Source: Candidatus Latescibacterota bacterium (GTDB lineage: Bacteria > Latescibacterota > UBA2968). From it: DNA of 64,000 nucleotides. The number at the start of each line of letters is the position of its first letter. Positions within the stretch are counted from its first letter, which is position 1. Under the pieces are notes generated by a model. It was given only the letters and a program-made list of their open reading frames with translations, did no database searches and was not told the origin of the DNA. Position numbers and translations under genes: made by a program. Shown in pieces: positions 37,401 to 63,218 of this stretch. The stretch covers positions 1,664,001 through 1,728,000 of the forward strand of contig OZ242320.1 in the NCBI GenBank assembly GCA_965208125.1, read 5' to 3'.

Positions 37401-40400
37401 GAGCACGGCGCAGACGGTTACAGTGACAGGTGTGGATAATCAGCTTGATGATGGCACAAGTCGTAGTGCAACGGTTGAACACACCGTCAGTGGTGCAGAT
37501 TATGCAGGTGAAGATGCTTCAGATGTGGATGTGACTGTGACAGATGACGATGCAGCACCTACCTTCTCTATCGCAGATGTGAGTGTCACCGAAGGCAGTG
37601 CAGCCACATTCACCGTAACCCGCAGTGGTGCAACAGGCACGGCGGTCTCTGTGAAGTGGAACACCGCCGATGATGCAAGTGGCACAGACCCAGCAGAATC
37701 GAATGACTATACAGCACAGACGAGCAAGCAGACGTTGAATTTTGCGATAGGTGATGCCAGTAAGACCTTCACGGTTGCCACGACGAATGATGCTGTGGAT
37801 GAAGGTGATGAGACGTTCCTTGTCCAACTGAGTGAGGCTACTGGTGCGACCATCTCCGATGCAGAGGCCGTAGGAACCATTACGGATAATGATACGAAAG
37901 GAGTGACGGTAGCTCCGACAAGTCTGACCGTGACGGAAGCGGCAGGCAGTACACGCACAGCAACCTATACGGTGGTGCTGACTTCACAGCCTACTGGCAA
38001 TGTAACAGTAGAAGTAGAAAGTGACGATACAGATATAGCGACGGTGGATGAATCAACATTGACCTTTTCGACAAGCACCTGGAGCACAGCGCAGACGGTT
38101 ACAGTGACGGGAGTGGATAATAATGTAGATGATGGCACAAGTCGTAGTGCAACGGTTGAACACACCGTCAGTGGAGCGGACTATGCAGGTGAAGATGCTT
38201 CAGATGTGGATGTGACTGTAACCGATGACGATGCAGCACCTACTTTCTCTATTGCAGATGTAAGTGTCACCGAAGGTAGTGCAGCCACGTTCACCGTAAC
38301 ACGAAGTGGTGCGACAGGCACGACGGTCTCTGTCAAATGGAACACCGCCAATGATGCAACCGGTGATGATCCGGCAGAGGCCAATGACTACACAGCACAA
38401 ACAACGAAACAGACACTGAGCTTTGGTGCGAATGATGCGATTAAGACCTTCACGGTTGCCACGACGAATGATGCTGTGGATGAGGATGATGAGACGTTCC
38501 TTGTCCAACTGAGTGAGGCCAGCGCAGGCACATCAATCACCGATGCAGAGGCCGTAGGGACAATCACGGATAATGATACGAAAGGTGTGACGGTAGATCC
38601 TACAAGTCTGACCGTGACGGAGGCTGCTGGCACCACACGCACAGCAACCTATACGGTGGTGCTTACGAGCCAGCCGACGGGCAACGTGACAGTAGAAGTA
38701 GCAAGTGATGACACAGACGCAGCGACAGTGGATAAGTCCCGTTTGACCTTCTCGACAAGCAACTGGAGCACAGCACAGACAGTGACCGTGACAGGTGTGG
38801 ATAATAATGTAGATGATGGCACAAGTCGTAGTGCAACGGTTGAACACACGGTCAGTGGAGCGGACTATGCAGGTGAAGATGCTTCAGATGTGGATGTGAC
38901 TGTGACTGATGACGATGCAGCACCTACCTTCTCTATCGCAGATGTAAGTGTCACCGAAGGCAGTGCAGCCACATTCACCGTGACCCGCAATGGTGCGACA
39001 GGCACGGCGGTCTCTGTCAAATGGAACACCGCCAATGATGCAAGTGGCACAGACCCGGCAGAATCGAATGACTACACAGCACAAACAACGAAGCAGACAT
39101 TGAGCTTTGGTGTGGGTATAACGAGTCTAACGTTTAGTGTTCAGACAACGAATGATTCTGTGGATGAGGATGATGAGACGTTCCTTGTGGAACTGAGTGA
39201 GGCCAGCGCAGGCACATCAATCACCGATGCAGAGGCCGTAGGCACCATTACCGATAACGATACAAAAGGAGTGACGGTAACACCTACAAGTGTGACTGTG
39301 ACGGAGGCAGCGGGCACCACGCGCACGGCAACTTATACGGTGGTGCTGACTTCGCAACCTACGGGCAATGTAACAGTAGAAGTCGCCAGTGACGATACAG
39401 ACGCAGCGACGGTGGATAAGTCCCGTTTGACCTTCTCGACAAGCACCTGGAGCACGGCGCAGACAGTGACCGTGACAGGTGTGGATAATCAGCTTGATGA
39501 TGGAGCCAGTCGCAGTGCGACGATTGAACACATGGTCAGTGGAGCGGACTATGCAGGTGAAGATGCTTCAGATGTGGATGTGACTGTAACCGATGATGAT
39601 ACGGCTCCCGCGTTTTCAATAGGTGATGTGAGTGTCACCGAAGGCAGTGTAGCCACATTCACCGTAACCCGTTCAGGTGCTCTTGGCAGTGTTGCATCCG
39701 TGAAGTGGAACACAGCCGATGATGCCAGTGGCACAGACCCAGCAGAATCGAATGACTACACAGCACAGACGACGAAGCAGACATTGAGCTTTGGTGCGAA
39801 TGATGCGATTAAGACCTTCACGGTTGCCACGACGAATGATGCTGTGGATGAGGATGATGAAACCTTCCTTGTGCAACTGAGTGAGGCGAGCACAGGCACA
39901 TCAATCACCGATGCAGAGGCCGTAGGAACCATTACGGATAATGATACAAAAGGTGTGACAGTAGCTCCGACGAGTGTGACCGTAACAGAAGCGGCAGGCA
40001 ACACACGCACGGCGACTTATACGGTGGTGCTTACGAGCCAGCCTACTGGCAATGTAACAGTAGAAGTCGCCAGTGATGACACAGACGCAGCAACGGTGGA
40101 TAAGTCCCGTTTGACCTTCTCGACAAGCACATGGAGCACAGCACAAACAGTGACCGTGACAGGTGTGGATAATAATGTAGATGATGGAGCCAGTCGTAGT
40201 GCAACGGTTGAACACACCGTCAGTGGAGCGGACTATGCTTCTGTAGATGCTTCGGATGTGGATGTGACTGTAACCGATGATGATGCGGCACCTACTTTCT
40301 CTATCGCAGATGTAAGTGTTACAGAAGGCAGTGCTGCCACATTCACCGTGACACGAAGTGGTGCAACGGGCACGGCGGTCTCTGTCAAGTGGAACACTGC

Positions 40401-43400
40401 CAATGATGCCAGTGGCACAGACCCAGCAGAAGCCAATGACTATACGGCGGTTTCTACGAAACAGACATTGAGCTTTGGTGTGGGTGTAACGAGTCAGACG
40501 TTTAATGTTCAGACAACGAATGATTCTGTGGATGAGGATGATGAGACGTTCCTTGTGCAATTAAGCGAGGCGAGCACAGGCACATCAATCACCGATGCAG
40601 AGGCCGTAGGGACAATCACGGATAATGATACAAAAGGTGTGACAGTAGCTCCGACGAGTCTGACCGTGACGGAGGCAGCAGGCAACACACGCACAGCGAC
40701 TTATACGGTGGTGCTGACTTCGCAGCCTACTGGCAGCGTGACCGTGGCAGTAGAAAGTGATGACACAGATGCAGCAACGGTGGATGAATCAACATTGACC
40801 TTCTCGACCAGTGATTGGAGCACGGCGCAGACAGTGACCGTGACAGGTGTGGATAATCAGCTTGATGATGGAGCCAGTCGCAGTGCGACGATTGAACACA
40901 TGGTCAGTGGAGCGGACTATGCAGGTGAAGATGCTTCAGATGTGGATGTGACTGTAACCGATGATGATACGGCTCCCGCGTTTTCAATAGGTGATGTGAG
41001 TGTCACCGAAGGCAGTGTAGCCACATTCACCGTAACCCGTTCAGGTGCTCTTGGCAGTGTTGCATCCGTGAAGTGGAACACAGCCGATGATGCAAGTGGC
41101 ACAGACCCGGCAGAATCGAATGACTACACAGCACAGACGAGCAAGCAGACATTGAGCTTTGGTGCGAATGATGCGATTAAGACCTTCACGGTTGCCACGA
41201 CGAATGATGCTGTGGATGAAGATGATGAGACGTTCCTTGTCCAACTGAGTGAGGCCACTGGTGCGACCATCTCCGATGCAGAGGCCGTAGGCACCATTAC
41301 CGATAACGATACAAAAGGAGTGACGGTAACACCTACAAGTCTGACCGTGACGGAGGCAGCAGGCAACACACGCACAGCAACTTATACAGTGGTGCTGACT
41401 TCACAGCCGACTGGTAGTGTGACGATTGGTGTAGAAAGTGATGACACAGATGTAGCGACAGTGGATGAATCAACATTGACCTTCTCGACAAGCACCTGGA
41501 GCACAGCACAGACGGTTACAGTAACAGGTGTGGATAATCAGCTTGATGATGGAGCCAGTCGCGGTGCGACGATTGACCACGCGGTCAGTGGTGCAGATTA
41601 TGCATCTGTAGATGCTTCAGATGTGGATGTGACTGTAACCGATGACGATGCAGAACCTTCCTTTACGATAATTGAACCCATGCCAGTGGTCTCGATATCC
41701 CCTACGAGCCAGATAGAATCTGCGGGTACGATTGTGTTCTCAGTGCAATTGAGTAGAGCGAGCCAGCAGATCATAAAAATGTTATGCACGAGTGTAGATG
41801 AGACAGCAGTAGCTGGCGAGGACTACGAGGCAGCGATGGACACGCTGAAGATTGCTCCAAACACGATGTCTGGAGAGATTGAGATGCGGCTGTTTGACGA
41901 CGATGAAGTGGAGGGGGATGAGACCTTCAAGATGGTGCTGAGCGATTTGATGAATGCCGAGTTTGCAGGGAATGCACAAACAATATCTGAAAGGGCAACG
42001 ATAATAGATGACGATGAGCCTGATGTGATGGTTTCGTTTTACCAGTCGCATTATACTATCTCAGAAGGTGGCAAGGCAGTGCAAATACGTGTGGATATAT
42101 CTTCTGGCCTTGAAGATCGCGTGGAACTTCCGTTGTCGGTAGTACATCGCAATGGTGCGACAAAAGCGGACTATTCGGGCGTACCTGAAAAAATTGTCTT
42201 TGAGACATGGGATGATTTCAAGACATTTGAGGTTAGGGCAATTGATGATGACGATGACGATGACGATGAGGTCGTGATACTGGACTTTGACGCGCCGCTA
42301 CCAGATGGAATATCTACAGGCGGTTCCACTACCATAGAGATTATCGACAATGACGACCCCCTTGTGACTGTTTTTTATGGAAAAGAAAACTATGAAATCG
42401 TCGAGGGTGGCACCAAAAAGTTACTGAGTGTGCATTTGAGTGCAGCCCCTCTGCGCCGCGTAGAAATACCTCTGTTGGCGGTACCTGCCAATGGTGCGAC
42501 ACAGGCAGACTATTCACCTATACCTGAGCGCATCATTTTTATGCCTGACCAGATCGAAAGAACGTTTGTGGTCAGTGCGATTGATGATGATGACGACGAT
42601 GATGGTGAGACCGTGAGTCTGGGCTTTGGTCCACTACCAGATCGGGTGAATGAGGGCAGTTTATCTACTTTACATATCATAGATAATGACAATCCTGTTG
42701 TGACTGTTTCGTTTGACCAGTCACATTACATAGCAACAGAGGGTGAGGGTGCAGTGACAATCACAGTATCCCTGAGTGCAGACCCAAAGCGCCGTGTAGA
42801 GATTCCACTATTGGTAACACCTGACAATGGCGCAACACAGGCAGACTATACAGATGTGCCTGAGCAGATTGTCTTTGATCGCGGAGAAACAAAGAAGACC
42901 TTTGACCTGATGGCTATTGACGATAATGTAGATGATGACGGCGAGACCATAACCCTCAACTTTGGCACATTGCCGGATGGGGTGAACAACGGTGGATCGG
43001 CATCTGTGGCTCTTGTCGATAACGATGACCCGGTTGTGACTGTTTCGTTTGATCAGTCGCATTACACGGCAACAGAAGGTGAGGGTGCAGTGACAATCAC
43101 AGTATCCCTGAGTGCAGACCCAAAGCGCCGTGTAGAGATTCCACTATTGGTAACACCTGACAATGGCGCAACACAGGCAGACTATACAGATGTGCCTGAG
43201 CAGATTGTCTTTGATCGCGGAGAAACAAAGAAGACCTTTGACCTGATGGCTATTGACGATAATGTAGATGATGACGGCGAGACCATAACCCTCAACTTTG
43301 GCACATTGCCGGATGGGGTGAACAACGGTGGATCGGCATCTGTGGCTCTTGTCGATAACGATGACCCGGTTGTGACTGTTTCGTTTGATCAGTCGCATTA

Positions 43401-46400
43401 CACGGCAACAGAAGGTGAGGGTGCAGTGACAATCACAGTATCCCTGAGTGCAGACCCAAAGCGCCGTGTAGAGATTCCACTATTGGTAACACCTGACAAT
43501 GGCGCAACACAGGCAGACTATACAGATGTGCCTGAGCAGATTGTCTTTGATCGCGGAGAAACAAAGAAGACCTTTGACCTGATGGCTATTGACGATAATG
43601 TAGATGATGACGGCGAGACCATAACCCTCAACTTTGGCACATTGCCGGATGGGGTGAACAACGGTGGATCGGCATCTGTGGCTCTTGTCGATAACGATGA
43701 CCCGGTTGTGACTGTTTCGTTTGATCAGTCGCATTACACGGCAACAGAAGGTGAGGGTGCAGTGACAATCACAGTATCCCTGAGTGCAGACCCAAAGCGC
43801 CGTGTAGAGATTCCACTATTGGTAACACCTGACAATGGCGCAACACAGGCAGACTATACAGATGTGCCTGAGCAGATTGTCTTTGATCGCGGAGAAACAA
43901 AGAAGACCTTTGACCTGATGGCTATTGACGATAATGTAGATGATGACGGCGAGACCATAACCCTCAACTTTGGCACATTGCCGGATGGGGTGAACAACGG
44001 TGGATCGGCATCTGTGGCTCTTGTCGATAACGATGACCCGGTTGTGACTGTTTCGTTTGATCAGTCGCATTACACGGCAACAGAAGGTGAGGGTGCAGTG
44101 ACAATCACAGTATCCCTGAGTGCAGACCCAAAGCGCCGTGTAGAGATTCCACTATTGGTAACACCTGACAATGGCGCAACACAGGCAGACTATACAGGTG
44201 TACCTGAGCAGATTGTCTTTGAAAGTGGCGAGACGGTCAAAACATTTGCTCTGCTTGCAACGGACGATGATGTAGATGATGACGGCGAGACAATAACCCT
44301 CAGATTTGGCACATTGCCGGATGGGGTGAATAACGGTGGATCGGCATCTGTGGCTCTTGTCGATAACGATGACCCTGTTGTGACTGTTTCGTTTGACCAG
44401 TCACATTACATAGCAACAGAGGGTGAGGGTACAGTGACAGTCACTGTATCCCTGAGTGCAGATCCCGAGCGCCGTGTAGAGATTCCACTATTGGTAACAC
44501 CTGACAATGGCGCAACACAGGCAGACTATACAGGTGTACCTGAGCAGATTGTCTTTGAAAGTGGCGAGACGGTCAAAACATTTGCTCTGCTTGCAACGGA
44601 CGATAATGTAGATGATGACGGTGAGACAATAACCCTCAACTTTGGCACATTGCCGGATGGGGTGAACAACGGTGGATCGGCATCTGTGGCTCTTGTCGAT
44701 AACGATGACCCGGTTGTGACTGTTTCGTTTGATCAGTCGCATTACACGGCAACAGAAGGTGAGGGTGCAGTGACAATCACAGTATCCCTGAGTGCAGACC
44801 CAAAGCGCCGTGTAGAGATTCCACTATTGGTAACACCTGACAATGGCGCAACACAGGCAGACTATACAGATGTGCCTGAGCAGATTGTCTTTGATCGCGG
44901 AGAAACAAAGAAGACCTTTGACCTGATGGCTATTGACGATAATGTAGATGATGACGGCGAGACCATAACCCTCAACTTTGGCACATTGCCGGATGGGGTG
45001 AACAACGGTGGATCGGCATCTGTGGCTCTTGTCGATAACGATGACCCGGTTGTGACTGTTTCGTTTGATCAGTCGCATTACACGGCAACAGAAGGTGAGG
45101 GTGCAGTGACAATCACAGTATCCCTGAGTGCAGACCCAAAGCGCCGTGTAGAGATTCCACTATTGGTAACACCTGACAATGGCGCAACACAGGCAGACTA
45201 TACAGGTGTACCTGAGCAGATTGTCTTTGAAAGTGGCGAGACGGTCAAAACATTTGCTCTGCTTGCAACGGACGATGATGTAGATGATGACGGCGAGACA
45301 ATAACCCTCAGATTTGGCACATTGCCGGATGGGGTGAATAACGGTGGATCGGCATCTGTGGCTCTTGTCGATAACGATGACCCTGTTGTGACTGTTTCGT
45401 TTGACCAGTCACATTACATAGCAACAGAGGGTGAGGGTACAGTGACAGTCACTGTATCCCTGAGTGCAGATCCCGAGCGCCGTGTAGAGATTCCACTATT
45501 GGTAACACCTGACAATGGCGCAACACAGGCAGACTATACAGGTGTACCTGAGCAGATTGTCTTTGAAAGTGGCGAGACGGTCAAAACATTTGCTCTGCTT
45601 GCAACGGACGATAATGTAGATGATGACGGTGAGACAATAACCCTCAACTTTGGCACATTGCCGGATGGGGTGAATAATGGCGGATCGGCATCTGTGGCTC
45701 TTGTCGATAACGATGACCCTGTTGTGACTGTTTCGTTTGACCAGTCACATTACATAGCAACAGAGGGTGAGGGTACAGTGACAGTCACTGTATCCCTGAG
45801 TGCAGATCCCGAGCGCCGTGTAGAGATTCCACTATTGGTAACACCTGACAATGGCGCAACACAGGCAGACTATACAGGTGTACCTGAGCAGATTGTCTTT
45901 GAAAGTGGCGAGACGGTCAAAACATTTGCTCTGCTTGCAACGGACGATAATGTAGATGATGACGGTGAGACAATAACCCTCAACTTTGGCACATTGCCGG
46001 ATGGGGTGAATAATGGCGGATCGGCATCTGTGGCTCTTGTCGATAACGATGACCCTGTTGTGACTGTTTCGTTTGACCAGTCACATTACATAGCAACAGA
46101 GGGTGAGGGTACAGTGACAGTCACTGTATCCCTGAGTGCAGATCCCGAGCGCCGTGTAGAGATTCCACTATTGGTAACACCTGACAATGGCGCAACACAG
46201 GCAGACTATACAGGTGTACCTGAGCAGATTGTCTTTGAAAGTGGCGAGACGGTCAAAACATTTGCTCTGCTTGCAACGGACGATAATGTAGATGATGACG
46301 GTGAGACAATAACCCTCAACTTTGGCACATTGCCGGATGGGGTGAATAATGGCGGATCGGCATCTGTGGCTCTTGTCGATAACGATGACCCTGTTGTGAC

Positions 46401-54051: not shown

Positions 54052-54127
54052 CCGCAGATGGCGCAGATGGGGACGCAGATAAACTTTCGCCCCCATCCAT
54101 CGTAGGGGCAACCCTTGTGGTTGCCCT
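54052..54127 (+). repeat. Intergenic short repeats: 3x CGCAGAT plus a GTAG-type REP palindrome
   Basis: CGCAGATGG-CGCAGATGG-GGA-CGCAGAT, then GTAGGGGCAACCCTTGTGGTTGCCCT (54102-54127). Confidence 0.65.
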
Positions 54128-54144
54128 GTGAAAAGGAAAACATC

Positions 54145-54987
54145 ATGGACGCAAAAAAATGGTTGCAACACTGCGCGACAGAAGCACAACTCAGGCAATT
54201 TAACGACGAGGGATATTTGATCGTCGAAGACGCCCTATCGCCCGACCTGCTCGCGCGATTGAATGACGCCGTCGATCGGGTAGAAGCGCGGGAACGCGAG
54301 ACAAAGGGAATGAAATCAGATGCATTATTGAGCAAATTTCGAACTGTTGTGGAAGACGATATCTTTCTGGAATTACTCGATAATCCCAAAACATTCCCGC
54401 TATTATGGGATATTTTGGGATGGAATATCCAGCTCTATATCTCCCATCTAATCGTATATCCACCCGAGCAAAAGAAACGCGAAATTAACCCGGGTGGCTG
54501 GCATCAAGACGGCGGGCGACCCGTGCCCGAGATGGAACGCCCCCACCCGCGCCTATCCCTGAAGATCAGCTACTGGTTAAGCGATGTTAACACCCCAGAA
54601 CACGGCGCAATGCAAATTGTACCGCGCAGCCATAAACTGGACACAAAACCCGAAGGCTCCGATGCTGGCGAAGGCGTGTTACCCGTATGTGTCAAAGCGG
54701 GAACAGCCGTCCTCTTTGACCGCAGAATGTGGCATCGGCGGGGGATTAACACATCCGACGTCACGCGCCGCGTGCTATTCTTTGGCTACAGCTATCGCTG
54801 GCTGCGGGGGCTGGATTACAACCTCATGCCCGAAAATATCCTGAGCAAATGCGACCCCATCCGCCGCCAGCTACTCGGCGATGGCACAGACGTCAAAGGA
54901 TGGTGGCAACCCACAGAAGCCGACGTCCCCCTCAAAAGCTGGCTGCGCGAACACAAAGGCGAAGACTATCTCGAAGCACTGGGATAG
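54145..54987 (+). CDS. Phytanoyl-CoA dioxygenase (PhyH) family protein
   Basis: GGWHQDG, GAMQIVPRSH and FDRRMWHR motifs; ATG 54145 after SD AAGGA. Confidence 0.9.
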   Translation: MDAKKWLQHCATEAQLRQFNDEGYLIVEDALSPDLLARLNDAVDRVEARERETKGMKSDALLSKFRTVVEDDIFLELLDNPKTFPLLWDILGWNIQLYISHLIVYPPEQKKREINPGGWHQDGGRPVPEMERPHPRLSLKISYWLSDVNTPEHGAMQIVPRSHKLDTKPEGSDAGEGVLPVCVKAGTAVLFDRRMWHRRGINTSDVTRRVLFFGYSYRWLRGLDYNLMPENILSKCDPIRRQLLGDGTDVKGWWQPTEADVPLKSWLREHKGEDYLEALG

Positions 54988-55065: not shown

Positions 55066-55290
55066 AGGAGGTGCATCCAGAAGAACGTGGCCGAAAAAGC
55101 GCAGATAGATGTTACCGGAATTTCAGGGCACTCTTTTCGAGTCGGCACAGCGCAAACACTCGTGGAGAAAAAGGCGACAATGCCACAGCTTCAGACGGCT
55201 GGACGCTGGAAGGATACCAGGATGCCGGCCAGATATACGGGGAAAGAAGAACTCGCTCACGGGGTTATCGCTACCATCCTGGGCAAGTAG
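55066..55290 (+). pseudogene. C-terminal fragment of a tyrosine recombinase (Cre-like integrase)
   Basis: ISGHSFRVG (HxxR), AGRW and MPARY (catalytic Tyr); the N-terminal part of the recombinase is absent. Confidence 0.8.
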
Positions 55291-55390
55291 ATAATCAACA
55301 CCTTCGCCAATTAAATGGGGCGAATAGCCCCTAATACGGTAAATTTGAAACAGGAGTATCCGTAGATTCACTTTCAGCAGGAGGGGCATT

Positions 55391-56077
55391 ATGAAGCAAA
55401 AGAATAACGCGATTCAAGAAGAAAAAGATTACCAAGCAATATTCCGTCCAAAAGAAGAACCAAATGACCAGGAAGATCTGAAAACTGATGAATGGATTGA
55501 GGCAGTTTCGGATTTCGAGATGTTCTCAGAACAGCTACAACGGGTCATATATGATCTGCACCAGTGGAAGTGGGCGGTTATCGCTCTGCATAGCGGCATC
55601 CAGGGCATGATGATCCTTGCACTCAACGTAGGTGATGGCTTGAGTGTTCTCCAAAAAAAGGATGCGGAGCAGTATTTATGTTGGAAGAAAGGTGATAGAA
55701 GCGAGCCAGTGCCGCGCGGGAAACTCGTTCCCTTCCTCGACCTTTACAAGAACATCAAAGACGATAAGTCCCCAATGAACAGGTCTCCGGATACCCAGCA
55801 TTTCGTCCCCAAAGGGACGCAAGACAAATCTATCAAACTATTACACCATTTGAGAAACGAGTTCATGCACTTTACGCCTAAGCGCTGGATACTTAATCGC
55901 GAGGGCCTCCCCGCTATGGCATCAGATTGCCTTGAAATAGCTGAATTTCTGGCTTGGGAATCTGGCAATATAATCTGGTATGAACATGACTTGAAGAAAA
56001 GACTAAAGATTGCCTTTACATCTGCCCGTAAGTCTTTGTCTGCTGTAGAGAAAGAGTATAATGGAGGTACGTCTTGA
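55391..56077 (+). CDS. Putative HEPN-domain protein
   Basis: Helical 228 aa with WKWAVIALHS and an RxxxxH motif (LRNEFMH); SD GGAGG. Confidence 0.55.
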   Translation: MKQKNNAIQEEKDYQAIFRPKEEPNDQEDLKTDEWIEAVSDFEMFSEQLQRVIYDLHQWKWAVIALHSGIQGMMILALNVGDGLSVLQKKDAEQYLCWKKGDRSEPVPRGKLVPFLDLYKNIKDDKSPMNRSPDTQHFVPKGTQDKSIKLLHHLRNEFMHFTPKRWILNREGLPAMASDCLEIAEFLAWESGNIIWYEHDLKKRLKIAFTSARKSLSAVEKEYNGGTS

Positions 56078-56499
56078 ATCGTGAGTAGGATATCATCGCC
56101 TTGATTTCAGCGGACTACCTATGATGTGGCCGAATGGTCATCTGCGATCTGTGGACTTCCCGAACGTCGTATCTCCCCAACTGATGTTATACAGGCTTGA
56201 GGATATAAAGAAGACGATTATATACAATAGTGCCGAAGTGATTAAAAACGCTCCCAAAAGTTTTTCTTTTGGATGAATAAACTATCTGACAAAACTGGTA
56301 CATAGAATCAGATGTACAATAAAATTGCCTGATTAGGGTATAATCAGGAAATTTGTATATAGCAAATTTCTGGTACAGATTAGTATTGGGATAGCCCGAT
56401 ACTTCCTAAAGGACTACCCCAACTTTACATCTCTCCGTTCCTGCCTTGTATTTGATCGTAGGCTTTTAATAACCTTTCTTCAACAGGAAGCATTAGGCA

Positions 56500-56778
56500 T
56501 CACCTCCTTGCACGATGATCTTTGCCCATCTTGTAAGCTGTTGCTACGGATATTAACCACACAATAGCCCAAGTTACATTGTCCTCGCCAAACACATCAC
56601 ATAGTGTACCAAACATATCTAAATAAAACCAAAAGAACACGCCGATATGAGCCACGACATTCCATAGAGTATTCTTTACTCTTTTCGAGGGATGTGAAGC
56701 CATGACAAATATTGCACTGACAAAGAAAAACGGCAGATTTATACAAAATAACGTGATAAGTATTTCACTCATATCCAT
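56500..56778 (-). CDS. Small membrane protein
   Basis: 92 aa with 2-3 hydrophobic helices; no clear SD. Confidence 0.45.
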   Translation of the reverse strand: MDMSEILITLFCINLPFFFVSAIFVMASHPSKRVKNTLWNVVAHIGVFFWFYLDMFGTLCDVFGEDNVTWAIVWLISVATAYKMGKDHRARR

Positions 56779-57216
56779 AAAGAAAGGGGGTTGTGTAGCA
56801 CAGTAGCATAAGCCAAAAGAGCCGAGGCAATGGCCTATATGTCTGAAATATAGGCCATTGCAATTTCAGCTAGGTTTACGCTTTATTTTTTCAAACTCTG
56901 GTCTTTTAAAAACAATGATACACAGATTTGAAAGACGATCCGATGAAAACAGGACGAACCCCAATAATGCCCTGACCGTTCCTCTAAAAATACGCGCCAG
57001 TTGTCCCATTTGTCAAGGTCTGGTCGAAATAAATTAGCCCGTCAATCTCATTTGATCAACGGGCTTTGTCTTATGCCTGGTCGAGCACCACAACCACAAC
57101 ATTTTGACGCGCCAAGGACATAGCCAGCGACAATGTGCGAAGTTCCACATGTGTATCCCCAGGAGAAATTGAAATACAGCGAATAGACTCGCCCGCGCCC
57201 GCCTCGAGTACAACAC

Positions 57217-57253
57217 AAAAGCCCGCCGACCATTGCGATCAGTGGGCTTTTTC
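57217..57253. terminator. Bidirectional terminator-like hairpin
   Basis: AAAAGCCCGCCGACC...GATCAGTGGGCTTTTT downstream of the 57308 gene. Confidence 0.55.
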
Positions 57254-57307
57254 TATTCGCTTTACATCTTTTTGAGGATGTGTTTGGCTATCTGATAGCT
57301 TGACTTG

Positions 57308-57739
57308 TCATTGCTGTCTATCATTGCCTGTGTCATCATCAACAAAGGGCGGCAATGGAACGTCGGGATGGTTTTCCTTCAACCAGCTACGCCACTGGGC
57401 ATTATTTTCTTTAATACTATCCCTGAGCTTTCGATCCTGCCGCTCGCGGTATTTTTCGACTAAAAGTGTCCTCATACCTACCCCCTGTATAACTAAAAAG
57501 GCAAAGACGACAGCAAAAATACCCACATGCCCTATGGAGATAGCCAATTCAATGAGACCATCTCTATCGAGTCCGATAATTTTGTCCCAGTCACGCCAAA
57601 GAACCAGACCTAACAAGGGCACAAAAAACACGAGAGCCAACCCAATGATCCACTCTCTTTCCTCTGGCGTACAACTCCAAATATCTACTCGATCATCTGC
57701 GGGGCTTTGCCTCTGCTCCATTTGTTCCTTACGCTCCAT
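57308..57739 (-). CDS. Two-TM membrane protein, hypothetical
   Basis: Two hydrophobic helices and a charged tail ending WRSWLKENHPDVPLPPF. Start uncertain. Confidence 0.6.
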   Translation of the reverse strand: MERKEQMEQRQSPADDRVDIWSCTPEEREWIIGLALVFFVPLLGLVLWRDWDKIIGLDRDGLIELAISIGHVGIFAVVFAFLVIQGVGMRTLLVEKYRERQDRKLRDSIKENNAQWRSWLKENHPDVPLPPFVDDDTGNDRQQ

Positions 57740-57936
57740 TTCTCTGGGGAAATTTCCCACCTTCAAAAAAGGTAACGAAATAGAAATCTAACAGCAAGAA
57801 TAATCCTCTCCCCAAAAGGCCATTGGTTGCTACCAGTAGCCTTTTTCTTTTGTGCGAATATCGAAATTTCCTGGCACAAATACAATGATGGGGAATTTGC
57901 CCGCCCGAAACGGGTCAAGTCCATTTGACGGGTTTT

Positions 57937-57983
57937 AAAAAAAAGAAGAAGTGCCCCGCCAAACATCGCCAGGGCACTTTCTT
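57937..57983 (-). terminator. Terminator of the beta-CASP transcription unit
   Basis: Minus strand reads AAGTGCCC-TGGCGATGTTTGGCG-GGGCACTT-CTTCTTTTTTTT immediately after the stop codon. Confidence 0.7.
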
Positions 57984-57990
57984 GTGACAT

Positions 57991-59583
57991 TTACGCAATC
58001 AGCACTGGATGTAACAACTCAGGAGACTGACGATCCGGGACAAAAAACTCTTTCCAAGAGTATTTTAACGACAAGTGAAACACCTTTTCGTTTATCAGTG
58101 TCATCTTTTCCGTGCCGAACCACATCTCGGCCAATTCCCATACGCGAAATGGCCCCTTCTCTCCCGCTTCTATCAGATAGTCATACAACTCGGAAATCCG
58201 TTGGCGACAAAATTCTCTTCCGTCGGCGATGCCTGCTCGCTTGGTATAGGTATATTCGCCGCCATTCTTGGGGAGTTGCACATCTACATTCAGAGCCCTT
58301 TCTCTCACAGATTCAGCCAATTTCTTCCTCGCACAGTCATCGCCGTGTACAAGAAAGCATGTATGCGGCTTCAGTCTCTCGACCAAATTCGCCAGTTGTT
58401 TCTGATCCGCATGCGCGGAAAGCGAATATCGCTTCACATCGCACTCTACATGTTCCTCCTGTTCATCAAGGTTCAGGACGCGATCATCCTGCAACTTGCG
58501 CCCAGGAGTTCCTTCAGCCTGATAGCCCGTAATTGCGATCAGGTTCTTTGGATCACCAGCTAATTTCTCGGCATAAAAACTCGATCTGCCTCCGATCAAC
58601 ATCCCCGAAGACGCCACAATACAGCACGGCTCCCACGACGCAACGCTATCGCGGTCAAATTTGCGCGGCACTGGCTTTATGGTATCCGAATAGAAAATAT
58701 CCTCGTCTCGTTCTACCCTGCCCCGCATCGCTGGTGCAAGATTATCCCCAAAAGTCGCATACACCTTATTGACCGACTGCACCATCCCATCAATCCATAT
58801 GGGAAACTCGGGAATCTGCTTGCGCCGCATAGCCCGCGCCAAAATCAGAACAACCTCCTGTGCACGCCCCACGGCAAAGGCCGGTATTAACACTTTTCCG
58901 CCAGATTCAATCACCTTAGCCACGTCCGATACAAGCCGATCTTTTTCATTTGCGCGATCCTTGTGACAACGATTACCATACGTGGATTCCATCACCATCA
59001 CATCGGGACGGCACTGCGGCACAACCATACCCGGAATCGTCAGTTGATTGGCAACCGACACATCGCCTGTCATCAGAATACTTTCCCGTTTGCCCTCAAT
59101 ATAGATCATTGCTGCGCCCAAAATATGCCCGGCACGAATCCACCTGGCGGTCAACGCGCCATCACAGACCGACACGGGTTTATCCCACGGCACATCCACC
59201 ATGCGTTCCAAGACTGCGGCGACATCTTCAGGAGAACACAGAGGCAACTTACCGTCTTGTTGCTCACGCTGTCCCCGGTTCGCAGTATCTTCTAACAATA
59301 CCCGTGTAATCGCCTTTGTTGCTGGCGTACAATACATCTTCACATCTGCGGGCAAACCATTCACCAACACCGGCAGAGCACCCGTATGATCGGTATGCGC
59401 GTGTGTAATCAGCACCTCATCGGGCATACCCACATCGTCCGGCACAGAAAAATTGGGCAACTGTTTATCCTGATGGACGCCCATTCGAATGCCCGCATCT
59501 ACCAGAATGCGTTTTTCTTCTATTTCAATCAATGTGCAGGAAGCACCGACCTCGTCGGCACCACCCAAAAAATGGAGTTTCAT
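57991..59583 (-). CDS. MBL-fold beta-CASP ribonuclease (CPSF73/YSH1-like)
   Basis: LVDAG, THAHTDH, AGHILG, TGD, MESTYG, AVGRAQE, GYQAEGT, LSAHAD and LVHG (motif C His, RNA-type); ~90-aa C-terminal extension. Confidence 0.92.
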   Translation of the reverse strand: MKLHFLGGADEVGASCTLIEIEEKRILVDAGIRMGVHQDKQLPNFSVPDDVGMPDEVLITHAHTDHTGALPVLVNGLPADVKMYCTPATKAITRVLLEDTANRGQREQQDGKLPLCSPEDVAAVLERMVDVPWDKPVSVCDGALTARWIRAGHILGAAMIYIEGKRESILMTGDVSVANQLTIPGMVVPQCRPDVMVMESTYGNRCHKDRANEKDRLVSDVAKVIESGGKVLIPAFAVGRAQEVVLILARAMRRKQIPEFPIWIDGMVQSVNKVYATFGDNLAPAMRGRVERDEDIFYSDTIKPVPRKFDRDSVASWEPCCIVASSGMLIGGRSSFYAEKLAGDPKNLIAITGYQAEGTPGRKLQDDRVLNLDEQEEHVECDVKRYSLSAHADQKQLANLVERLKPHTCFLVHGDDCARKKLAESVRERALNVDVQLPKNGGEYTYTKRAGIADGREFCRQRISELYDYLIEAGEKGPFRVWELAEMWFGTEKMTLINEKVFHLSLKYSWKEFFVPDRQSPELLHPVLIA

Positions 59584-59631
59584 CTTGATTCCTTTCACGA
59601 ATGACGTTTGCTATCCCAGTTGTCTTGAAAG

Positions 59632-59698
59632 GATGCGTCGTATGCACAATCCAGAGGGATCATCGTGAGGCTATAGGAGCCTCGAAGTGCGACGCATC
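59632..59698 (-). ncRNA. Candidate structured intergenic RNA (three-way junction)
   Basis: Closing stem GATGCGTCG(59632-40)/CGACGCATC(59690-98) encloses hairpins ATCC-agag-GGAT(59649-60) and GAGGCT-atagg-AGCCTC(59667-83). Confidence 0.4.
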
Positions 59699-59776
59699 GG
59701 GAGGGAATACTTTTGAAGCTATTTGTAGGCGGAGGTGTTGACGGGCAAAGGAGATACCGCGATCTGCACCTGCCAA

Positions 59777-59929
59777 TTACTTGCGTTTTGGCGGGGCGTT
59801 ATAGCGGCCACGTCCAGACTTGTTGCCTGTTGTGGCGGGCCAACCTGCGCCTTTTCCACCGCCACCGCTTTTACCGCTACCTCGGGTGCTACCTCTACTG
59901 CCACCGCGGTTACCACTTGATTTAGCCAT
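59777..59929 (-). CDS. 50-aa Gly/Ser/basic micropeptide
   Basis: MAKSSGNRGGSRGSTRGSGKSGGGGKGAGWPATTGNKSGRGRYNAPPKRK, preceded by a very strong SD (AAAGGAGGTGA). Confidence 0.7.
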   Translation of the reverse strand: MAKSSGNRGGSRGSTRGSGKSGGGGKGAGWPATTGNKSGRGRYNAPPKRK

Positions 59930-59974
59930 TTTCTCACCTCCTTTCTTGTTGGTATCCATCGCCTCAGGGGGGCA

Positions 59975-61753
59975 CTATTCTCCCCAATCGAGGCGATCAT
60001 TTTTCTCTCGTGTTCGGTGCAATTCTGTTCGGCGCGTTCGTATCGCCCCTGCTTGATCAATCTCTTTTCCCAGCGTCAAGAGATGTGACTGGCGAAGCCA
60101 CCAAAAGGCTTCAAATAATGGTCGGCGAGATGAGGCACCGCGCTCTAAATTCGGCTTGTTGCGGTTGAGATGCCGGATTTGTCTGTGCGCTCTTTTTGCA
60201 AATTCGCGGACATTTTTATCGGGATCGTTTTTAGACAGCCAAAACAATGTTCTATGCGCTCGCCCACCGGGATTCACGCGCAAAGCTGTCAATGCCTGCA
60301 CATAACACTGCCGCCACGTCCGGCGCGGTTCAACAAATTCTTCATCTGCGTCATCAGACACGTTACTCTTTGTCCGGGTGTCAGTTTTTTTTGTCTTAAG
60401 CCGTTCAAGACAAAATTTGGCAAACTCTTCGCGCAAGCCCTGTAAGTGCGGATCTCTATCCAGTTCATCCCGAAGATTCTGAGGATACATAGAGATTCCG
60501 ATCCAGGAAGGGATTCGACTATACGGATGAGGGGGAGGCTCTCTATCTGATTCTGGCCAGTAGCGAAGATCCGAGGCAACGGCTGGCACAGTCATCTCTG
60601 TGAAAGCAAGCAATAAGGACTTCAAACATCGCCACGGGGCGGCAAAGATGCACAACACTTCAAAAGCCTTATCGTAAAAATCATCAACGTCCTCACCTGT
60701 CGAATCCTCACGCGCAAAGTCCTCGGGCGTCTCTCGCAACACTTTCCGCAACATGCCCATGTGTTTCGCAGCACTTGCGACCAGCCGATCTCTCAGCTCA
60801 TCAGACAGACCAGACGCCAAACCACCCATACCGCTATAGTAAATCGTCACAGATAACCGCCACCAGGCTTTGAGCAAAGATGCGCGTTCTCGGCTTAACT
60901 CGGGCTGTTTCTCATCCAGAAGTTCCATGAAGGGAATTAACTCATCTGCAACAATTCGCCATCCGTCACCCACGGGATTCAAACGTTCCGTACCCAATGC
61001 AAAGCCAGTATTCATAGCATATCCAATGGCATGCAAAAGGCCGAGAATTTTGTCGCCCAAAACGTCTCCAGAAAAATCAGAAAACGCTTGTAGCAGGGTG
61101 TCCAACCTGATGATGTCACAACGCTCTGCGTTATCCCGGAATCGCCAGATTAACCAAAATTCAATCTGTTCAGGATCTCCAAAATCATTTTTGGACCATT
61201 CTTTTCGCTGAATCGGATTCAACAACTCGAAATTGGCGACCTGGCCTAAAGGCACGCCTTCTGGAAAGAGAAATGGAATCAGGTCAAAGAATCGGTACTC
61301 GTCCCAAATTTCAATGAGCTTGTGCAAATCCAAACTTTTCACACAAAAATCCGCATGCCTTTGGAACGCACCAACCCACTCGGGAATGACCTCATTTGGT
61401 ATATCGAGCTTTTCGTTGGGCCCACTCTTTTCACCGTGATAAATAGGTCCAAAGCCAAGCAGAAAGCTAAAAAGCAGTGCCAGACGGAGTTGCCGATCCT
61501 TCTCGGTTTGATCTGGTTCTCCTAACTTTTCCACAATGTCAGGTAGGTCACGCTCAAAATAACTCGCAAACTCGTCTTTGAATACAGCATCCCCACTGGT
61601 ATCACCAAAACAGTCTGGACGTTCAAAAACGCGAATGAGCCATTCCTGGTCATCACGGGAAAAACCAGCGTCCTGAAGGCACTGTTTTACAGAAGATACT
61701 TCTGAATCATCAGGGAAAACAAGGCCAGAACGGCCATCTTCAGCTTCGCTCAT
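59975..61753 (-). CDS. Hypothetical alpha-helical protein with a HEAT-like C-terminus
   Basis: 592 aa with SD AGGAG; C-terminal WRQCYVQALTAL...NDPDKNVREFAKRA...FEAFWWLRQSH. Confidence 0.75.
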   Translation of the reverse strand: MSEAEDGRSGLVFPDDSEVSSVKQCLQDAGFSRDDQEWLIRVFERPDCFGDTSGDAVFKDEFASYFERDLPDIVEKLGEPDQTEKDRQLRLALLFSFLLGFGPIYHGEKSGPNEKLDIPNEVIPEWVGAFQRHADFCVKSLDLHKLIEIWDEYRFFDLIPFLFPEGVPLGQVANFELLNPIQRKEWSKNDFGDPEQIEFWLIWRFRDNAERCDIIRLDTLLQAFSDFSGDVLGDKILGLLHAIGYAMNTGFALGTERLNPVGDGWRIVADELIPFMELLDEKQPELSRERASLLKAWWRLSVTIYYSGMGGLASGLSDELRDRLVASAAKHMGMLRKVLRETPEDFAREDSTGEDVDDFYDKAFEVLCIFAAPWRCLKSLLLAFTEMTVPAVASDLRYWPESDREPPPHPYSRIPSWIGISMYPQNLRDELDRDPHLQGLREEFAKFCLERLKTKKTDTRTKSNVSDDADEEFVEPRRTWRQCYVQALTALRVNPGGRAHRTLFWLSKNDPDKNVREFAKRAHRQIRHLNRNKPNLERGASSRRPLFEAFWWLRQSHLLTLGKEIDQAGAIRTRRTELHRTREKNDRLDWGE

Positions 61754-61909
61754 ACCAACTCCTGTTAAGCATCAAGCCATATCCTTTTGGCGCAATCAAC
61801 TCAGGATTTTGCGATCCTGTTTCAGATTGTGAACCCGCAGGATTCCCGACTGAAGAAGTATCGAGATCGGAAGAGATGCAAATTGCATCAAAGCACGAGG
61901 TTCAACGAA

Positions 61910-61938
61910 AGAATATTCAATTTGTTCAGATGTGTCAA
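61910..61938 (-). promoter_or_regulatory. sigma70-type promoter of the 592-aa / peptide / beta-CASP unit
   Basis: Minus strand reads TTGACA(61938-33)-17 nt-TATTCT(61915-10). Confidence 0.6.
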
Positions 61939-62203
61939 CCCCAAATTTGGAAAACTCGGTCTAATCCTATTGTGTTCTTATCCACATTCTTATGATGTAA
62001 AAATCTCCGTTAAACCCCACCTTTTGTGAGTGATTAGATTACAACCCGCCCTCCATGTCCTTTCCGATTACAAAACCCCGCGTTATTCGTTTCAGAGGGC
62101 GCACTCTTATTGATGGTGTGCCCGCCCGCAGGTCTTCAAACGATATGCGACACCCCACAGCGCAAGTCCAAGACAAGCGCCGCTTCGGGGGAGCATCAGT
62201 TTT

Positions 62204-62935
62204 TTGCCGTCTGGGGCGTTGCTTTCGGTTGCTCGGTTCGGCCGTTGGGTGGGGCGTTCTCGTCCTCTTTGGTCCGGTGGGGCGTTGGGCGTTGATAGTG
62301 CTGCGTCTGCTGGGGCGTTGGCGCAGGGTGGTCAGGTGTGCTGGTGGTTGCCGGCTGGGTTTGGCGAGTTGGCCGCTGGGTCTTCGTCGCCTGTTGTTCG
62401 TGGTCCGGGTGGGGTCTTTCCGGTTTCGGCGCCCCGTCAGTTGGCGCGTTCTGTTCGGTGTGTTGCCTGGTCGGGTGGGCCGTCTTCCGCTTCTGTGCCT
62501 TTCAGCGAGCGGTTGTTCCAGCGGTCTGTGTCGCTTCTTCTCTCGCTTCGTGGTGCGGGTGGTGGGTCTGTGGTCTGCTTCACCTCTCAGGTTGCTCTTT
62601 CGGCTCGGCGTGGGGGGTCCTATTTCACTGTCCGTCGTGCGTTGCGCCTTGGGTTCCGGCCCGGTGTGTCGCTGTTTGTCGTGCTTGTTGGGGAGCCTGC
62701 TGGCTTTCAGCTTTTGTCGCCGGGGGCTGTGGTGTCCGCCTTTTCTGCTCCCTCTTCCTCTCAGCAGTCTCTCTTCACTCCCGAGCAGCTTGTGGGTGCG
62801 CGTCCGTCTCTCTTCCCGCCGGTGTCTCCTTCTGGGTCTCGTCGCGATCCGCATGGCGAGCGGTTTGATTCTCAGTCCGTGTGTGGGCCGTTGTCTCAGT
62901 CCTTCTGGCTCGGTTTCCGGTTCCGGTCTGGTTAG
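62204..62935 (+). CDS. SLOG/DprA-like Rossmann-fold protein encoded by an adenine-depleted gene (possibly 5'-truncated)
   Basis: WSGGALGVDSAASAGAL and GGSYFTVRRALRLG match the DprA/SLOG motifs SGxAxGxDxxAHxxAL and GSxxTAxxAxxxG. All A residues fall at codon positions 1 or 2 in this frame. Confidence 0.65.
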   Translation: MPSGALLSVARFGRWVGRSRPLWSGGALGVDSAASAGALAQGGQVCWWLPAGFGELAAGSSSPVVRGPGGVFPVSAPRQLARSVRCVAWSGGPSSASVPFSERLFQRSVSLLLSLRGAGGGSVVCFTSQVALSARRGGSYFTVRRALRLGFRPGVSLFVVLVGEPAGFQLLSPGAVVSAFSAPSSSQQSLFTPEQLVGARPSLFPPVSPSGSRRDPHGERFDSQSVCGPLSQSFWLGFRFRSG

Positions 62936-62979
62936 GGTTTCTGGCCCTTCGTCCGCGGTCCATTAGATAGAAGTTTGAT

Positions 62980-63180
62980 TTGACCACTTTAAATTTGGCG
63001 AAATCTGAATGCCTCAACGCACAAAAAGGGATGCCTCGCGCCTCTGGTCTATGGGCCGTGTGAAAATCCTCGCGTTCAATCAACATTATCTGAACCGAAT
63101 TATTCGCATCTTCGGATTGGACGAGACTTGCATCAAAAAACGACACGAATATCAAATGCTTAAGGATTATGGCGCGCCGT
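62980..63180 (+). pseudogene. Frameshifted C-terminal remnant of a DDE-type transposase
   Basis: LTTLNLAKSE in one frame, then SMGRVKILAFNQHYLNRIIRIFGLDETCIK...YQMLKDYG in another; resembles from memory the C-terminus of an IS4-like transposase group. Confidence 0.45.
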
Positions 63181-63218
63181 TTAATTCTGTTCACTCTAAC
63201 GATATGGCTGGCGACATG

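Follow-up and report, generated by a model that had tools for sequence, protein, structure and literature searches.

Organization of the locus

We analyzed a 64,000-nucleotide stretch of the genome of a Candidatus Latescibacterota bacterium (contig OZ242320.1, positions 1,664,001 to 1,728,000, assembly GCA_965208125.1; hereafter the window), which holds on its minus strand a compact unit of three open reading frames (ORFs) coding for a 592-residue protein with a predicted HEAT-like alpha-solenoid fold (hereafter the 592 protein), a small Gly-rich peptide and a beta-CASP nuclease. An initial reading of this DNA from its letters alone (the sequence-only reading) had described these genes, together with a promoter, a multi-stem intergenic element and a terminator, as a self-contained module, and all of these features are present on that strand (Table 1). 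A survey of related loci, 45 from genomes and 28 from metagenomes, revealed that the constant parts of such units are the 592 protein and, in Latescibacterota and Poribacteria, two structured RNAs, here termed R1 and R2, and not the RNase. R2 forms the leader of the 592 mRNA, and R1 lies immediately before the downstream gene, which we call the cargo.

Table 1. Features of the unit, in window coordinates
Feature	Coordinates	Strand	Basis or remark
Sigma-70-type promoter TTGACA-17-TATTCT	61938..61910	minus	-35 hexamer kept across relatives
R2, structured 5' leader RNA of the 592 mRNA	61822..61903	minus	47-sequence alignment, covariance model
592-residue ORF (HEAT-like alpha-solenoid)	59975..61753	minus	ORF list
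50-residue Gly/Arg/Lys-rich small ORF with strong Shine-Dalgarno (SD) sequence AAGGAGGTGA	59777..59929	minus	ORF list, SD, codon-position entropy
R1, structured three-way-junction RNA	59621..59698	minus	35-sequence alignment, RNAalifold, pair counts
Candidate expression platform (anti-SD and SD)	59584..59633	minus	alignment with relatives, pair counts
Cargo gene, 530-residue beta-CASP nuclease	57991..59583	minus	Pfam, PDB matches
Intrinsic terminator at the end of the unit	57937..57983	minus	hairpin of -21.6 kcal/mol, then U8 (UUCUUCUUUUUUUU)

The TTGACA hexamer of the promoter is invariant in 16 of 16 aligned relatives, with conservation beginning about 30 nt upstream of it; promoter-like sites as such number 10 in the region against 10.5 expected by chance. 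The terminator hairpin (z -2.52) was overlooked by a pattern scan in which the loop was limited to 8 nt. A scan of the window between the 592 gene and the cargo found neither a promoter-like site nor a U-tract terminator, and a single transcript across both genes is therefore plausible from the sequence. Four sponge metatranscriptome runs each contain about 10% of the sampled sequence words. Contigs were obtained from two of them, matching parts of the 592 gene and the 3' end of the beta-CASP region at approximately 90-95% identity; the other two yielded none. These contigs indicate only that the genes of a relative occur in RNA libraries, and are silent on start sites and co-transcription.

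Two conserved structured RNAs

R1 is a three-way junction of about 78 nt, formed by P1 (GAUGCGU/ACGCAUC plus CAC/GUG) and the hairpins P2, with the loop CUCAAUAG, and P3 (GAUCC..GGAUU). In an unfitted MAFFT alignment of 35 copies, 94.1% of the cells are paired, against at most 50.2% in slid-partner controls, in which pairing is recounted after the partner positions are shifted along the alignment. Compensatory changes occur at 9 of the 19 pairs, and the observed covariation is unmatched by any shuffle. R2, which directly follows the conserved promoter and occupies the 5' end of the 592 mRNA, is likewise a three-way junction, with P1 (GAACCU/GGGUUC), the hairpin P2 (GAUGC..GCAUC) and a bulged hairpin P3. 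Its 47 copies are paired in 96.0% of the cells (slid controls at most 51.5%), with compensatory changes at 13 of 19 pairs and 0 of 500 shuffles reaching the observed covariation; the R2 covariance model matches the window at 61814..61910 with 96.1 bits. G-U alternation is frequent among the pairs of both elements (e.g., UA:22/UG:11 and GU:14/GC:13/AU:4), which would give mismatches on the opposite strand and agrees with RNA of the mRNA sense. Both are real structured RNAs of the gene strand, and the multi-stem intergenic element of the sequence-only reading is R1, a conserved three-way junction with covariation.

The R1 covariance model yielded 46 matches, in the window and in 40 of the 45 genome loci; every match is on the gene strand and just upstream of a cargo gene. 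Thirty-five of these matches are the training sequences and 11 are independent; further independent matches were obtained in metagenome loci and in genomes of the phylum. Loci with two cargoes carry two copies of R1, every type of cargo has R1 in front of it, and the intergenic DNA preceding different cargo types is 85-91% identical between loci.

Directly 3' of P1 of R1 lies the segment UCCUUUCA (59626..59633), an anti-SD complementary to the SD sequence UGAAAGGA (59590..59597), which sits 7 nt before the ATG of the beta-CASP gene. Most relatives have a GAC/GUC helix and a small apical hairpin between the two. The anti-SD/SD helix is 87.7% paired and the platform as a whole 81.0%, against at most 56.0% in slid controls.

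Neither RNA corresponds to an Rfam family: the whole window gave no match, and the interval 59500-60050 searched at E <= 10 gave just a chance match to a long non-coding RNA. In 12 related loci R1 and R2 were again unmatched, the sole matches being a tRNA and a thiamine pyrophosphate (TPP) riboswitch elsewhere. A TPP riboswitch lies at 1958..2062 of locus L042, about 6 kb upstream of the 592 gene of a Poribacteria relative, and is unrelated to the unit.

Co-occurrence and insertion of the unit

The 592 gene and the two RNAs co-occur strictly. Among 41 related genomes, 10 carry the 592 gene, the same 10 carry R2, and R1 is found in the same 10 and as one additional match of 27 bits. Across the phylum the 592 gene has a patchy distribution (19 of 168 genomes, 5 of 49 genera), and R1 was found in 15 of 151 genomes, in 14 of which the match adjoins a 592 gene; the fifteenth is the 27-bit match, in genome G009, where no 592 gene was found. 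The genome of the window itself has one copy of each RNA.

The unit behaves as a discrete insertion that moves as a block. In several relatives it is located between an rfbB-like gene and uvrA, and because this site is occupied in those relatives and empty in the present genome, the unit can be recognized as an insertion: here a 94%-identical rfbB is directly convergent with uvrA with nothing between them, and the unit lies about 820 kb away. The R2 model, run with its filters off, found no match at the empty rfbB-uvrA site or at the locus of the core beta-CASP gene (see below).

Exchange of cargo genes

Directly downstream and on the same strand, the 45 genome loci carry a beta-CASP gene (26 loci), a prokaryotic viperin (15) or a B12-radical-SAM (B12-rSAM) enzyme of the PDC-M51A type (9). 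These cargoes occur singly or stacked in variable order, and at least one of the three is present in 43 of the 45 loci, the exceptions being one glycosyltransferase and one contig end. Eight of the 15 viperin loci also carry a Tmk-like kinase matching VakA/PDC-M51B. The viperins of these sister loci are bona fide: they have the radical SAM motif CxxxCxxC, match the PADLOC prokaryotic viperin (pVip) models with E-values of 6e-93 to 4e-118 and exceed the curated cut-off (e.g., in locus L026, 317 bits against a cut-off of 180 for the NCBIfam model viperin_w_prok, NF038283). Similarly, the B12-rSAM cargo matches PDC-M51A at E 1e-90, and the kinase matches PDC-M51B at E 6.5e-27.

The type of cargo is random with respect to the phylogeny of the 592 protein. 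On a quick maximum-likelihood tree (IQ-TREE, as for the beta-CASP tree below) it changes 18 times, against a mean of 18.5 when shuffled, and the 592 protein nearest to that of the window (83% identity) carries a pVip and a kinase. The sequence-only reading had staked its trio of 592 protein, peptide and RNase on co-occurrence in other genomes, and the outcome is half in its favor: the trio does recur, with the peptide directly followed by a beta-CASP gene in 15 of the 45 loci, but as one arrangement among many, and with the peptide in 29 and the beta-CASP gene in 26 of the 45 it is not a fixed set.

Two loci (L024 6082..8143 and L011 11936..13990) carry a second, decayed unit behind the B12-rSAM cargo, in which an entire R2 copy and what remains of the 592 C-terminus and the peptide precede a 496-residue protein. 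The latter is Gly/Ala-rich and membrane-like, has no family match and may be a fourth type of cargo; a comparison of the L024 copy with the 592 family by hhalign gave no relation.

The 592 protein

The 592 protein combines an acidic N-terminal half (isoelectric point, pI, of 4.4 for residues 1-280) with a strongly basic C-terminal domain (pI 11.3 for residues 471-592) that ends in an AFWWLRQ helix. The C-terminal 120 or so residues are conserved, with invariant Arg, Trp and His, and this basic, conserved terminus would fit binding of nucleic acids. In line with the sequence-only reading, the protein is modeled as helical: the AlphaFold2 model is all-helical (mean predicted local distance difference test score, pLDDT, 76.5), as is a separate model of the C-terminal domain (~77). 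Residues ~436-530 (37-131 of the C-terminal domain model) superpose on HEAT units of alphaRep, YibA, New1 and AP2 with Z-scores of 8-9.1 and a root-mean-square deviation of 1.7-2.3 Å over 63-74 residues, Z-scores below ~13 being common among helical repeats.

Sequence searches did not place the protein in any known family. It has no match in Pfam (E <= 0.01, HEAT families included), PADLOC, NCBIfam or PHROGs; 24 sampled homologs contain no Pfam domain at E <= 0.001; a PDB sequence search with the family profile gave nothing better than E 0.39; and Foldseek searches of PDB with both models gave no match at E <= 1e-3. In the ESM Atlas, unnamed or HEAT_2-bearing clusters were retrieved at 0.88-0.90, which we treat as leads only. 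The family is nonetheless large: close homologs number in the hundreds, in metagenome-assembled genomes of Latescibacterota and Poribacteria, and a profile search of a library of 1.84 billion proteins gave 471 clusters at 50% identity, the C-terminal half being the most conserved part. Among viral contigs a single 592-family locus was found, identical to a metagenome locus, with no sign of carriage by phages.

In metagenomes, distant homologs of the 592 protein are 25-45% identical to one another. At 20 such loci from unrelated metagenomes (30-40% identity; loci with at least 0.7 kb of downstream sequence, several being near-duplicates from different samples), a pVip, beta-CASP or B12-rSAM gene lies downstream in 12, or in 15 when three loci read by eye are counted. 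The link between the 592 protein and its cargoes is thus deep. Eight of the distant loci (L059-L062, L068, L070, L071, L078) show, right after the stop codon of the 592 homolog, a GC-closed element resembling a three-way junction followed by a strong hairpin, a layout like that of R1. At L071/L079 (572..907) and L078/L083, a small DUF4258 protein is encoded between the 592 homolog and the B12-rSAM cargo.

The beta-CASP nuclease of the window

The cargo of the window has the domain set Lactamase_B (E 6e-12), Beta-Casp (87 bits) and RMMBL (49 bits), the latter two above the Pfam cut-offs, and its start is the ATG at 59583 rather than the GTG at 59598, as judged from the alignment with relatives. 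The observation in the sequence-only reading that all metal motifs and an RNA-type motif C are present is borne out by Pfam and by alignment with the aCPSF1 protein PH1404, in which motifs 1-4 of the metallo-beta-lactamase domain (LVDAG, HAHTDH of the form HxHxDH, AGHILG and TGD), the Glu of motif A (ESTYG), the His of motif B (SAHAD) and the His of motif C (VHGD) are all aligned. A His in motif C marks beta-CASP enzymes of the RNA type, and a Val those of the DNA type. The best PDB matches are PH1404 (3e-63), INTS11 (9e-61) and Cas14 (1e-59), with CPSF73 also close. The scores with the NCBIfam models nonetheless fall short: 320 bits for the aCPSF1/FttA equivalog model TIGR03675 (cut-off 580), matched at model positions 176-625 only, and 309.5 bits for the Cas14 model NF045584 (cut-off 800). 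Judging from these matches, the enzyme is of the aCPSF1/Cas14 kind, yet neither one. Its gene neighbors, as far as identified, are the 592 gene, the peptide and small ORFs of no known family.

The same genome encodes a core beta-CASP protein of 834 residues outside the window (G000:C1:1070982-1072616; L055 4113..6617, minus strand), with no R1 or R2 beside it. Of 20 genomes of the genus, 18 have this core gene, and its product has an additional C-terminal segment of ~310 residues without a Pfam domain. The cargo enzyme is 68-72% identical to its N-terminal 526 residues. A quick tree groups the nine core copies in a single clade (support 100) that excludes all 25 cargo copies, and the cargo of the window is the sister of this core clade (support 92).

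The Gly-rich peptide

The 50-residue ORF, described earlier as having a very strong SD sequence, is a real gene: its codon-position entropies across 15 homologs are 0.83, 0.66 and 1.39, and because variability is concentrated at the third position it can be taken as coding. Its motif is P-S-K-T-G-x-x-S-G-x-x-R-x-N-A-P. The peptide is encoded in 29 of the 45 loci by a hidden Markov model search (a stricter regular expression had found 18), always directly upstream of R1 and the cargo, and it precedes viperin and B12-rSAM cargoes too. It has no match in PADLOC, Pfam, NCBIfam or PHROGs; the ESM Atlas returned unnamed small-protein clusters at 0.91-0.93 (leads only). The wider family comprises proteins of 45-70 residues with one or two copies of the motif (386 matches, some from Betaproteobacteria and one archaeon). 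A tblastn search of plasmids and phages with a relative bearing the doubled motif gave no match, possibly owing to the low-complexity filter.

In relatives, the peptide adjoins the 592 gene in 8 of 9 genomes. In the ninth (G031:C28; L096 ~5367..5513, minus strand) it stands before two PhyH-type dioxygenase genes with no 592 gene and no R1, the R1 model giving no match at this locus even with its filters off. A PhyH gene is also present in the window, at 54115..54987. The peptide of L015 contains an inserted Ala/Lys-rich segment, and in L003 and L009, which represent a close relative, the small-ORF slot between the 592 gene and R1 is occupied by a different hydrophilic peptide (...ADLDNHANQLN...) in place of the Gly-rich one.

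A candidate control platform for exchangeable effectors

We propose that the unit is a horizontally mobile, portable platform for RNA-level control of interchangeable antiviral effectors, with a constant front end and a cargo slot, a reading to which we would give an even chance of being correct. The front end would consist of the promoter, R2, the 592 protein, often the Gly-rich small ORF, and then R1 with its SD-pairing 3' flank, and one mRNA would run from the promoter at R2 to the terminator. On this mRNA the anti-SD helix, stacked on R1, would sequester the SD of the effector; the 592 protein would set the translation of the effector by binding R1 and provide autoregulation by binding R2. 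A small-molecule signal could, with lower probability, take over this role from the 592 protein. The result would be that a toxic RNase, or an enzyme that poisons nucleotides, is made on infection only. The parts and their conservation, the covariation of the RNAs, their strict co-occurrence with the 592 gene, the exchange of cargo and the insertion behavior are observed, whereas co-transcription, gating of the SD, protein-RNA binding and an antiviral role of this beta-CASP are inferred. As for the earlier proposal that an RNA gates the RNase, an RNA does occupy a position where gating is possible, and gating itself belongs to the predicted part of the scheme.

That the 592 protein is itself the factor binding R1 and R2 is a tentative suggestion, on the doubtful side. 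An equally speculative form of it would make the protein an RNA-binding infection sensor, which through R2 and R1 switches on the translation of any effector behind R1. If this is true, any gene behind R1, such as the short beta-CASP, the 496-residue membrane-like protein or the glycosyltransferase, would be a new antiviral effector, and the distant homologs with three-way-junction leaders of their own would point to an old and widespread partnership of protein and RNA.

A defense role of the unit is likely in our analysis because the sister loci hold bona fide viperins and PDC-M51A in the same slot. This favors the first half of the sequence-only suggestion of a defense or RNA-processing module; the antiviral role of the beta-CASP of the window itself is an extension from these sister loci.

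Several observations weigh against this scheme. At the level of transcription, the contigs from RNA libraries cover just pieces of a relative's 592 gene, and co-transcription is deduced. The window copy of the intergenic element folds only modestly on its own (z -1.66), the R1 model has no match in 5 of the 45 loci, and the small platform hairpin of relatives is deleted in the window copy. The anti-SD/SD helix hardly varies, and hence its covariation support is weak and cannot prove it; it also overlaps P1 of R1 by 1-2 nt only and so offers no evidence of a simple either/or switch. The loci of the distant homologs are matched by neither RNA model, and the three-way-junction-like elements there were judged by eye in single-sequence folds only. 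For the 592 protein, the argument for RNA binding consists of charge and co-occurrence, and fold searches with its models return generic solenoid or HEAT matches. Finally, the defense role is guilt by association: no defense database has a model for this beta-CASP, and since its core paralog is 68-72% identical, a housekeeping-like role is conceivable.

Alternative explanations

Among the alternatives, the one that survives best, though unlikely, holds that R1 and R2 are small-molecule riboswitches, sensing for instance a nucleotide-derived alarm, and that the 592 protein does other work, namely sensing of phage proteins or maturation and holding of the effector. Both RNAs are conserved, covarying structured elements in a 5' untranslated region (UTR), as riboswitches are, and they have the usual riboswitch layout of a compact three-way junction, its loop and junction nucleotides almost invariant, and then an SD-pairing segment. 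A metabolite switch would nonetheless be expected elsewhere in the genome or without the 592 gene; R1 and R2 are present once per genome and beside the 592 gene only, and two different aptamers in one operon would require two ligands. HEAT proteins are known as maturation or holding factors, BRAT1 for INTS11 and MMS19 for iron-sulfur clients, and the 592 model aligns to the dBRAT1-IntS11 complex (Z 6.8, 7.4) and to Met18/MMS19 (Z 7.5, 7.0), values which lie in the noise range of helical repeats and are leads only. It is unlikely that one chaperone would serve three unrelated enzyme folds, and the cargo does not co-vary with the 592 protein.

It is quite improbable that the unit is a non-immune operon for stress or for RNA or nucleotide metabolism, with the short beta-CASP acting as a backup for, or a competitor of, the core 834-residue paralog. 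The close similarity and sister-group position of the two enzymes and the prevalence of the core gene (18 of 20 genomes) would agree with this, as would the lack of a PADLOC model for the beta-CASP. Against it, PDC-M51A and viperins that exceed curated cut-offs occur in the same slot, the distribution is patchy and insertion-like, and beta-CASP enzymes of the Cas14 type serve as effectors of type VII CRISPR systems.

Very improbable, in our estimate, is a defense hotspot that the 592 gene merely flanks, with R1 acting at the DNA or single-stranded DNA level as a recombination site like attC or att for the exchange of cassettes. The cassettes are indeed shuffled and stacked, each behind the same element, which is nearly identical before different cargoes. 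Yet the 592 gene and both RNAs come and go jointly, as a single insertion, and a recombinase was found neither beside the unit of the window, apart from a 67-residue sub-threshold fragment, nor within 1.5 kb in seven relatives. Just three or four types of cargo recur, in a single orientation, and the link of the 592 protein to its cargo persists at 30-40% identity, where R1 is unrecognizable; RNA is moreover indicated by the conservation of the SD pairing and by G-U pairs specific to one strand.

Barely tenable is the dedicated three-protein complex of the sequence-only reading, with the solenoid as scaffold of the RNase and the peptide as its gate: the order 592-peptide-RNase does recur, but the peptide is missing from 16 and the RNase from 19 of the 45 loci, the peptide also precedes other cargoes and, in G031, PhyH genes with no 592 gene upstream, and a dedicated scaffold is disfavored because the cargo is random on the 592 tree.

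Relationship to known systems

With the control platform as the preferred reading, the closest counterparts of the unit can be compared with it part by part. Prokaryotic viperins are R1 cargo in 15 of the 45 sister loci, 8 of them with a kinase; the cargo of the window differs in being no viperin. The pVip models of PADLOC cover the viperin alone, the kinase-associated form and the viperin-kinase fusion, and a solenoid partner with RNA leaders was not found in the titles and abstract openings of the literature searched. In the same titles and abstract openings we did not find the term PDC-M51, nor the combinations of viperin with beta-CASP, viperin with riboswitch, Poribacteria with viperin, or pVip context with kinase. 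The B12-rSAM cargo and the kinase correspond to the two parts of the PDC-M51 system (B12-radical-SAM plus kinase), PDC-M51A and PDC-M51B; unlike in that system, M51A in these loci is usually without the kinase and stands behind the 592 gene and R1. The nuclease shares with CPSF73, aCPSF1 (FttA), INTS11 and Cas14 the same domain set and every metal and beta-CASP motif, the His of motif C among them; it differs from aCPSF1 in lacking the N-terminal part, where aCPSF1 has its KH domains (the match begins at model position 176), and from both aCPSF1 and Cas14 in scoring below the NCBIfam cut-offs.

The logic of one regulator and many cargoes is that of the WYL-domain BrxR/CapW-type repressors, DNA-binding transcription factors of which one conserved regulator precedes many defense cargoes. 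In contrast to these, the conserved partners here are two structured RNAs, with a segment that pairs to the SD, and a solenoid in which no DNA-binding domain is known, and control at the RNA level is therefore implied. In riboswitches and ribosomal-protein-leader operators, too, the 5' UTR carries a compact three-way junction with covariation and, after it, an SD-complementary segment; R1 and R2 differ from them in having no Rfam family and in being tied to one protein family rather than to a metabolic regulon. Integron cassettes resemble the unit in their promoterless cargo, stacked in a single orientation and each bounded by a structured element. No integron integrase of the IntI type accompanies the unit of the window or lies within 1.5 kb in seven relatives, however, and R1 lies 5' of the cargo as a sequence-conserved three-way junction carrying the SD-pairing segment.

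PADLOC-DB v2 contains no family matching at E <= 0.01 the 592 protein, the peptide or the beta-CASP of the window, or the distant 592 homologs and the beta-CASP cargo. With the 592 protein, the peptide and the RNAs unmatched in PADLOC, Pfam, NCBIfam, PHROGs and Rfam, the description of the module as new in the sequence-only reading stands. We found no description of the 592 family, R1 and R2, or this architecture in these databases or in the titles and abstract openings of the literature searched, and supplements or non-indexed papers may hold tables of such neighborhoods.

If the platform reading is correct, it represents a new organization of bacterial immunity, in which an unannotated family of 471 clusters and two new classes of RNA form a common control unit. 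Unrelated toxic effectors would share this unit, among them viperins, the native regulation of which in bacteria we did not find described in the titles and abstract openings searched. It would offer a testable answer to how RNases and enzymes producing chain terminators are silenced until infection, and a second defense context, outside CRISPR, for beta-CASP RNases of the CPSF73/Cas14 type. The two covarying motifs are ready for biochemistry, and R1 could serve as bait for the discovery of effectors. The hosts of the unit are sponge-associated bacteria, and the placing of different antiviral enzymes behind a fixed front end would point to a new way of controlling dangerous defense genes.

Genomic surroundings in the window

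The sequence-only reading had placed the unit in an island bounded by remnants of an integrase and a transposase. The integrase remnant corresponds to a 67-residue Phage_integrase fragment at 55087..55290, 2.7 kb from the unit, which scores below the Pfam cut-off (E 2.2e-4); a transposase remnant was not found, the interval 62039..63194 giving no Pfam match. In seven relatives no recombinase lies within 1.5 kb of the unit. GC content falls to 0.40-0.46 beside the unit. In the part of lowest GC content (55087..57766), the ORFs 55391..56077 (plus strand, 228 residues) and 57308..57766 (minus strand, 152 residues) are unmatched in Pfam, PADLOC, NCBIfam and PHROGs, and the ORF 56500..56778 (minus strand, 92 residues) has a sub-threshold Pfam match only. 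Directly upstream of the unit, the interval 62039..62966 is extreme in its strand composition, with an AT skew of -0.57 and a GC content of 0.60. Both of its strands carry long ORFs of low complexity that overlap, with no Pfam match and no notable tandem repeat. Farther away, a single ORF of 8820 codons (22432..48894, plus strand) encodes a giant adhesin-like protein, three sampled 2000-residue stretches of which are rich in Calx-beta repeats and also give LapA and cadherin-like matches.

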